A stretch of DNA of 64,000 nt from Escherichia coli (GCF_003334785.1 NZ_QOWV01000002.1), one strand, 5' to 3'; shown: positions 18,272 through 19,190, counted from the stretch's first letter. Made by a program: numbers and translations. The notes: generated by a model from the letters alone, not told the origin.

Positions 18272-19190
18272 GAATCTTGACCTTTTTTGCTGTTATCGCC
18301 ACTCCCTGCCGTGGAAGTCAGCTTAGAACAATGTACTCCCCCAGGACGGTGTTTTGAAGGTCTGCAGAATAAGATTTTGCCAGAGGGGAAGGCTCGATTG
18401 TGCTGTTAATAACTTAATAATGACAAAATAATGAGGTGTATATGCTTTACATGCAATGTTATATAGTGAATTGTTCTGATTCTTAATTGTAAGTCTGGTT
18501 TTTTTATCTGTAAGATAATTGTGTGAAAATGCCTCATTTAAGAATTCACTAATGAAACGCGATGATGATATTTCCTCATTACGGAGAGTTTAACTGCGTG
18601 ATGATTTCCGAGGTGTCGCAATGGGGGCAAGGTGTGAAACTATTGTTAAGCGGAATTAATGAATGAGGATGATGCTAATTAATTATTATTTAATATTCAA
18701 AAAGGTTTTGATGTGCTTATTAATAATAGAAGATTACTTTGCCTAACATAACATAACTTTGCATCAGATAATTCGCAATGACCCTTATAAATAAAAGGTT
18801 TTTGGGGTAAAATGCTCGGATAAATGACGGATCCCTGCTCTTGATGCCGCCTCACCATTGCTGTTGGTACGTGTTCGCGTATGACCAGCGATGCTGCACG
18901 AGAGTGGAACAAGGACTCACATTTACATTTATACAAACACGCGCATGTCATAAATAGAAAAGAGTGAGTAACTTAATAGATATGCGATCCCTGAAGATAT
19001 ATTCTGTGATCTACTTCAGGCATTATAACGGAACAATGTGAGTCGCTTTTTTAGTGCAACTCATATGCATTTTTACTTTCGTCCGGGTTCCGGATGAAAC
19101 TGCCAGGGAGGCACATTACAAATGGAATTGCTTGTTTGTGTGTGCACAGCATTAACCAGCTCAGTATGAGCCGCCAGTAAGTGATAATAT

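Follow-up and report, generated by a model that had tools for sequence, protein, structure and literature searches.

The master regulators rpoS, flhDC, and csgD have long 5′ UTRs on which several Hfq-dependent small RNAs (sRNAs) converge, and three of these sRNAs (ArcZ, RprA, and McaS) are shared with lrhA. In the case of rpoS, ArcZ and RprA activate expression by opening an inhibitory hairpin. The lrhA gene of Escherichia coli is likewise preceded by a long, sRNA-targeted leader, which lies in a long region between divergent genes with many transcription-factor sites; in contrast to rpoS, it is repressed by UhpU, ArcZ, and RprA, and no conserved inhibitory structure is seen in its proximal leader. 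The “920 bp-long lrhA-alaA” region has been listed among the long spacers rich in transcription-factor sites, where the 755-bp csgD-csgB spacer is named beside it (Shimada et al., 2014).

The closest described system is the lrhA 5′ UTR of E. coli K-12, which is the same locus with an identical sequence (Bilusic et al., 2014, PMC4152368; Melamed et al., 2023, PMC10578931). Melamed et al. assigned the lrhA 5′ UTR a length of 371 nt and recovered RIL-seq chimeras of this leader with UhpU, ArcZ, RprA, and McaS; a translational lrhA-lacZ fusion was repressed by UhpU, ArcZ, and RprA, while McaS was without effect (PMC10578931). The pairing of UhpU with lrhA was proven through compensatory mutation, repression first being lost and then restored, and McaS, which formed the most RIL-seq chimeras with the lrhA leader, led the authors to raise inhibition of McaS as a possibility (PMC10578931). 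Earlier, RNAs of 150 and 350 nt had been detected in association with Hfq and first named ig-lrhA-alaA; these species are fragments of the lrhA leader that are barely detectable in total RNA, and the same study reported an lrhA transcript of ~1.5 kb and elevated lrhA RNA in an hfq mutant (Bilusic et al., 2014; PMC4152368).

LysR regulators orthologous to lrhA are found as pigU in Serratia and as hexA/pecT in Pectobacterium, Dickeya, Photorhabdus, and Xenorhabdus. [quoted passage not shown] ArcZ, in turn, controls the translation of PecT and HexA. LrhA acts at a level above flhDC (motility), type 1 fimbriae, and RpoS; in other enterobacteria, the orthologous regulators control virulence, antibiotic production, and CRISPR-Cas. 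How the level of LrhA is set matters and is already under study, and the known inputs converge on the interval described below.

Here we analyze positions 18272–19190 of the window, by which we mean the whole stretch of 64,000 nt of E. coli DNA (GCF_003334785.1, NZ_QOWV01000002.1). This interval is the already described alaA/lrhA control region of E. coli and contains no hidden gene; it very probably serves as a regulatory region common to the divergent alaA and lrhA genes, with four functional zones. Roughly 40% of it is the published 371-nt lrhA leader, an sRNA target. Added to the published work is a coordinate-level, cross-genus conservation map that separates constrained from drifting parts. 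Constraint falls on both core promoters, on an upstream module of ~190 bp whose spacing is fixed, and on the final ~85 nt of the lrhA leader. A short open reading frame (ORF) that had been suggested as a gene is dropped as a candidate, and attention is drawn to a small RNA hairpin that is conserved in the leader of alaA.

Extent and composition of the alaA-lrhA gap

The genes alaA (17054–18271, minus strand) and lrhA (19191–20129, plus strand) are transcribed divergently and are separated by 919 bp (18272–19190). The annotation of K-12 MG1655 contains the identical 919-bp gap at 2406642–2407560 (MG1655 coordinate = 2425832 − window coordinate), where it is free of features, and the gap sequence is the same as that of MG1655 with no differences. 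When the 919 bp were used as a query, matches of 95–100% identity were returned from 5426 of 5426 complete E. coli genomes. The features published for K-12 (the +1, the 371-nt leader, the UhpU site, and the fragments bound by Hfq) can all be located in the window.

The original prediction, made from the sequence alone, described an unusually long, AT-rich gap between divergent alaA and lrhA, and this description is accurate. Among gaps between ORFs of at least 100 aa, the 919-bp interval is the longest in the window (median 55.5 bp; next longest 691 and 630 bp), and its GC content is 0.384 compared with 0.510 for the window. The minimum, 0.30–0.335 in 200-bp windows, falls at 18400–18800, and A/T tracts are numerous.

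Conservation across the Enterobacteriaceae

The conservation of the gap was assessed within the Enterobacteriaceae by fetching 80 loci with LrhA as the query (Serratia, Pectobacterium, Dickeya, Photorhabdus, and Xenorhabdus lie outside this set). A divergent alaA gene is located upstream of lrhA in 78 of the 80, and the 78 corresponding gaps (the window and 77 further loci) were aligned with MAFFT. Gap length ranges from 764 to 1140 bp, with most gaps measuring 900–1010 bp. The size of the gap is thus not a matter of chance, since the divergent order recurs in 78/80 related loci and the length stays within 764–1140 bp throughout. The gap is long because a long leader is stacked on two promoter regions, not because a gene is hidden in it. 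The distance between the start points of alaA and lrhA is 481–503 bp in most species (median 494 bp).

The 78 gaps form a conservation mosaic in which conserved promoter, module, and proximal-UTR zones are separated by two fast-evolving stretches. Identity to the window, given here in the order L002 (a divergent Escherichia), E. albertii, C. koseri, S. arizonae, E. cloacae, and Buttiauxella, is 0.96, 0.91, 0.89, 0.83, 0.76, and 0.65 for the alaA leader and promoter (18272–18360); 0.70, 0.63, 0.46, 0.49, 0.45, and 0.42 for an AT-rich spacer (18361–18630); 0.91, 0.75, 0.72, 0.65, 0.55, and 0.39 for a central AT block (18631–18760); and 0.93, 0.88, 0.69, 0.68, 0.64, and 0.61 for the lrhA promoter (18761–18819). 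Within the lrhA leader, the values are 0.82, 0.72, 0.49, 0.43, 0.35, and 0.48 for the distal UTR (18820–19095) and 1.00, 1.00, 0.85, 0.85, 0.66, and 0.52 for the proximal UTR (19096–19190). The flanking coding sequences, with identities of 0.74–0.93, lie above the AT-rich spacer. Delimited by its conserved neighbors, this fast-evolving spacer extends over 18359–18632; its length varies from 154 to 284 bp, and 51 of the 78 gaps deviate from the median by no more than 5 bp.

Two of the sequences encountered are of taxonomic interest. L002 (NZ_JAATUR010000019.1) is deposited as ‘E. coli’ SCPM-O-B-8794, and the 94% identity of its LrhA together with the 70% identity of its spacer suggests a cryptic Escherichia lineage. 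A contig assigned to Chryseobacterium sp. 18061 (CACSKA010000019.1) carries an enterobacterial alaA-lrhA arrangement with an AlaA that is 94% identical, a sign of possible contamination or mislabelling.

The lrhA promoter and its upstream module

The start of lrhA transcription can be placed at A18820, 371 nt ahead of the ATG, as the published fusion primer SM079 begins with ATAAATGACGGATCCCTGCT, which corresponds to window positions 18820–18839. The core promoter (18785–18820, plus strand) consists of a −35 element TTATAA (18785–18790), a 17-nt spacer, and a −10 element TAAAAT (18808–18813), with 6 nt between the −10 element and +1. It is conserved: the −10 element reads TAAGAT, TAGGAT, or TAAAAT in 68 of 78 species, CTTATAAA is also retained, and conservation ends abruptly at the −10 element.

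Upstream of the core promoter, three blocks stand out. Block A, TGTGAAACTATTGTTAAGCGGAATTAATGAAT (18633–18664, −187 to −156), contains the repeats TGTGAA and TGTTAA 11 bp apart and is conserved across genera, its spacing to the neighboring blocks being held within ±2 bp in 77–78 of 78 species. Block B, AATTAATTATTATTTAATATT (18677–18697, −143 to −123), is conserved at a fixed spacing, and block D, CATCAGATAATTCGCAATGA (18762–18781, −58 to −39), includes the conserved ATCAGATnATTCG and is separated from the −35 region by 18 ± 1 bp in 78/78 species. Overall, the upstream-block distances of 14, 41, 78, 18, and 24 bp are maintained within ±2 bp in 70–78 of the 78 species while the sequence between the blocks drifts. 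From this pattern of conservation, 18633–18819 is read as an upstream regulatory module of lrhA, ~190 bp long and of fixed geometry, and the invariant spacing suggests a fixed nucleoprotein arrangement.

Several published inputs could act here. ChIP binding and direct activation of lrhA have been reported for Lrp, the OmpR ChIP signal is raised at the lrhA-alaA region, and binding of CpxR to the lrhA promoter has been published; a search for the CpxR box GTAAA-N5-GTAAA with up to two mismatches returned no site anywhere in the gap. Genomic SELEX placed RNA polymerase peaks in the lrhA-alaA spacer (Shimada et al., 2014). Together with the sRNAs UhpU, ArcZ, RprA, and McaS, these reports from the literature bear out the expectation that the gap houses complex regulation. 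A further element of that expectation, autoregulation of lrhA, also finds support, as LrhA was reportedly described as autoregulatory by Lehnen and colleagues in 2002. The inputs from Lrp, OmpR, CpxR, and LrhA would presumably act at 18633–18819, and any assignment of a given factor to a given block would be conjectural.

The promoters placed here are unlike those predicted previously, namely CTGCCA-16-TATGAT for lrhA and TTAAGA-17-TATAAC for alaA (Shimada et al., 2014). A consensus promoter scan of the gap missed both conserved promoters and returned 3 hits against 3.6 expected, and start sites for alaA and lrhA were not found in the Cappable-seq supplement, the text of the Adams et al. preprint, or the Shigella TSS supplement. 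The lrhA transcript of ~1.5 kb exceeds the sum of leader and coding sequence (371 + 939 nt), and no terminator was found for lrhA; an additional upstream start may therefore exist.

The lrhA leader as a target of small RNAs

The lrhA 5′ UTR (18820–19190, plus strand) is a 371-nt Hfq-bound leader (PMC10578931; PMC4152368), and its counterparts in the 78 species measure 334–587 nt (median 400 nt). The original prediction of long 5′ UTRs thus holds for lrhA, but not for alaA, whose inferred leader is only ~53 nt. The lrhA leader folds somewhat better than shuffled sequences (MFE −110 kcal/mol, z = −1.98). Its distal part (18820–19095) is poorly conserved, and only the last ~85 nt are conserved across genera; within Escherichia, the last 95 nt (19096–19190) are 100% identical. 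RNAalifold returned 0 consensus pairs for the proximal leader, which indicates that the conservation of the last ~85 nt concerns their primary sequence; a conserved inhibitory fold in this segment, which had been considered, was dropped on the same result.

The conserved motifs of the proximal UTR coincide with sRNA sites. The validated UhpU site (19170–19184, plus strand; core 19172–19178) overlaps a conserved Shine-Dalgarno (SD)-like AGTGA at 19180–19184. In the published oligo table, the lrhA-M1 gBlock replaces GAGCCGCCAGT with GAGCCGCGAGT, which corresponds to C19175G (PMC10578931), and the UhpU-M1 change (ACTGG to ACTCG) is complementary to C19175G in the predicted duplex. RNAduplex runs with whole sRNAs gave long, loop-ridden duplexes, and interpretable sites were obtained with seed regions only. 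A pairing core for ArcZ, CCAGGGAGG, is predicted at 19103–19111 (plus strand, −88 to −80 relative to the AUG), where it would form a duplex of about −17.5 kcal/mol with the ArcZ seed UUUCCCUGG. A site for RprA and McaS, UGUGUGCACAGCA, is predicted at 19139–19151 (plus strand, −52 to −40), pairing with UGCUGUGUGUA, which both sRNAs have in common; the CACAGCA within it is near-invariant across genera. The ArcZ and RprA sites are predictions of the present analysis, and, lying 40–90 nt before the AUG, they are too far away for simple occlusion of the ribosome.

Taken together, the lrhA UTR very probably serves as a platform, occupied by Hfq, on which base-pairing sRNAs land. UhpU, binding at 19172–19178 beside the ribosome-binding site, blocks translation by canonical occlusion, as shown by the published compensatory mutation. 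ArcZ and RprA also repress lrhA, and McaS binds with no effect on the reporter. Signals of motility, envelope stress, and stationary phase would in this way be passed to the level of LrhA and from there to the expression of flhDC, fimbriae, and rpoS.

Does the gap encode a small RNA?

The earlier suggestion that the interval could hide a small RNA was correct to the extent that RNAs of 150 and 350 nt that associate with Hfq do arise from it, but these are fragments of the lrhA leader and not products of an independent gene (PMC4152368). A functional sRNA could in principle be produced in two ways, from a gene of its own or as a UTR-derived, trans-acting RNA, for example a sponge for McaS. Co-purification of the two species with Hfq, under the original name ig-lrhA-alaA, fits such a role (PMC4152368), as does the behavior of McaS, which has the most chimeras with the leader, leaves lrhA-lacZ unchanged, and was itself proposed as a possible target of inhibition (PMC10578931). 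The scarcity of the fragments in total RNA and their origin in the lrhA leader, however, fit decay intermediates (PMC4152368). Terminator-like hairpins were found on neither strand of the gap, and a search of the gap against Rfam gave no match at gathering scores and, at E ≤ 10, only chance-level hits far below threshold. Most of any 150-nt 5′ fragment would be made up of distal UTR, which is only 0.35–0.49 identical outside Escherichia. The marks of an independent sRNA gene (its own promoter with an intrinsic terminator, conservation, or a family match) were not found in the gap, and neither leader matched an Rfam covariance model of a riboswitch or curated cis-regulatory RNA. We consider it unlikely that the gap makes a functional sRNA, and we favor the reading of the Hfq-bound species as parts of an sRNA-targeted leader.

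Short open reading frames in the gap

The original prediction had pointed to several short ORFs, and the one it singled out, MKRDDDISSLRRV, does exist at 18552–18593 on the plus strand. The number of such ORFs, by contrast, is at chance level: 21 ATG-initiated ORFs of at least 10 codons were counted on both strands, compared with 16.9 ± 3.0 in dinucleotide shuffles, 11% of which reach 21. No ORF is conserved across the 78 gaps, and none of eight gap ORFs has an NCBIfam match. The MKRDDDISSLRRV ORF is situated 268 nt ahead of the lrhA +1, within the fastest-evolving stretch of the gap, and its ATG is replaced by ACA in both the divergent Escherichia L002 and E. albertii. The proposal that it is a hidden gene or leader peptide is consequently not sustained, as it lies outside the known transcript and loses its start codon within Escherichia.

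A better-placed upstream ORF (uORF), MELLVCVCTALTSSV, of 15 codons, is located at 19122–19169 (plus strand) with GGAGG 11 nt upstream. If a small ORF or leader peptide, whether MKRDDDISSLRRV or MELLVCVCTALTSSV, were translated to regulate lrhA, this uORF would offer a suggestive arrangement. The predicted ArcZ site covers its SD-like sequence and the predicted RprA/McaS site falls inside it, and coupling between uORF and lrhA would explain how sRNAs act 40–90 nt before the AUG. In 13 loci, the TGA stop of a homologous uORF of 22–25 codons (MELFVSECTALTR...) and the ATG of lrhA overlap in the sequence ATGA, which is a geometry of translational coupling; 12 of these 13 loci are of the Citrobacter/Salmonella type, and the Escherichia uORF ends 24 nt upstream.

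Against this, only 32 of 78 species have the uORF ATG and the other 46 carry AAG, AGG, or ACG in its place, while the adjacent GGAATTGC is conserved even where the ATG is absent. Replacement of the ATG with retention of GGAATTGC implies constraint on the nucleotides rather than on the start codon. The length of the peptide and the position of its stop are variable, the SD-to-ATG spacing of 11–13 nt is long, and the short ORFs of the gap occur at chance frequency and lack NCBIfam hits; the MKRDDDISSLRRV ORF is additionally unalignable beyond the genus. The conservation expected of translated ORFs is therefore not seen, as start and frame are not kept in either case. The uORF at 19122–19169 is a weak candidate with little probability of being real, and regulation of lrhA by any translated small ORF or leader peptide in the gap is quite improbable. 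We prefer to read the proximal leader as a conserved sRNA target.

A putative alaA promoter and a conserved leader hairpin

On the alaA side, a sigma-70 promoter is inferred at 18330–18358 (minus strand), with a −35 element TTCAAA (18353–18358), a 17-nt spacer, and a −10 element TACATT (18330–18335). It is read as the alaA promoter because two near-invariant hexamers flank 17 nt that vary freely among the 78 species. The putative start site, 6–8 nt past the conserved −10 element, gives a 5′ leader of ~53 nt (18272–18324, minus strand), which corresponds to 47–54 nt in the 78 species. Both the promoter and the leader are placed from conservation alone.

Within this leader lies a short hairpin, ACUUCC-ACGGCA-GGGAGU (18301–18318, minus strand; alignment A1, 78 sequences). 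None of the 78 sequences departs from the ACGGCA loop or from the two inner C-G pairs, whereas the closing pair covaries (AU 42, GC 12, GU 8, AC 2) and another pair alternates between U-G (36) and U-A (25). The presence of about 44 G-U pairs as against 2 A-C favors selection acting on the RNA over a DNA palindrome. The MFE fold of the E. coli alaA leader contains the hairpin, but the complete leader shows no unusual stability (z = +0.62). No Rfam family matched the hairpin. A metagenome scan with its 16-mer returned 120 loci, of which six had an AlaA or LrhA hit and five had alaA directly downstream; the remaining matches are assumed to be due to chance, and the 120 loci returned gave no sign of a wider regulon for the motif.

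The conserved alaA leader hairpin appears to be undescribed. Its invariant loop and its wobble-tolerant covariation would be compatible with a sequence-specific cis-regulatory RNA, and it may be a protein or sRNA site that controls the synthesis of the alanine transaminase rather than a generic 5′ stabilizer. Blocking by ArcZ and RprA of a translated uORF (19122–19169) coupled to lrhA is less likely than this reading of the alaA hairpin, and that one or the other of the two proposals is true is a tentative possibility that we would not count on. Separately, regulation of alaA by GcvB was considered for the CA-rich stretch before its SD sequence, and was set aside when no supporting literature was found.

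Foreign DNA or a decayed gene

The base composition of the gap invites another explanation, in which an H-NS-silenced, xenogeneic or nucleoid-structuring island is the main cause of its size and AT-richness. A GC content of 0.30–0.34 over 18400–18800, the many A/T tracts, and the occurrence of IS1 insertions within the gap are all in keeping with such an island. However, the order of the genes and the size of the gap, as well as its promoters and upstream blocks, are conserved across the Enterobacteriaceae, so the region is not lineage-specific, and its conserved synteny argues against foreign DNA. Moreover, both alaA and lrhA are expressed. The H-NS binding put forward in the original prediction may still occur but gains no support here: the high-affinity motif TCGATAAATT, which is a weak predictor, has no match within two mismatches in 18272–19190, and the SELEX table flags H-NS for neighboring spacers and not for lrhA-alaA (Shimada et al., 2014). 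We regard an H-NS-silenced island as very unlikely to be the main cause.

A last possibility, that a former gene decayed to leave this gap, is favored only by the length of the gap and by an 84-codon minus-strand ORF at 18697–18951. It is scarcely credible and was rejected, since the longest ORFs of the 78 gaps occupy differing positions and strands (median longest 57.5 codons) and the eight gap ORFs lack NCBIfam hits, and the conserved blocks have a promoter-like architecture with no codon periodicity.

Insertions and other observations in the window

Insertion sequences were noted at several points of the gap. IS1 is inserted in the lrhA 5′ UTR of the pig isolate NT1N31 at 18937–18947 (+118 to +128) and in that of the laboratory strain KMS2001 at 19044–19052. 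In SCPM-O-B-12142, IS1 is found at 18433, in the AT-rich spacer that also houses the ORF at 18552–18593, and is followed by elaD and rbn sequence, from which it follows that lrhA, and presumably the nuo operon as well, has been deleted or rearranged in this strain. In 42 of the 5426 complete E. coli genomes, the gap query is not matched over 80% or more of its length at any one location.

Other long gaps occur in the window. The one between lrhA and nuoA (20130–20759; 630 bp) is likewise AT-rich, with a GC content of 0.39, and yielded no terminator and no consensus promoter in simple scans. Two gaps flanked by convergent ORFs of 100 aa or more, at 45110–45800 (691 bp) and 48243–48846 (604 bp), have normal GC contents of 0.53–0.56 and no Rfam hit, and may contain genes of fewer than 100 aa. 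The sole Rfam match in the window is the nuoG RNA motif (RF01748) at 25617–25659, with a score of 50.3 bits.
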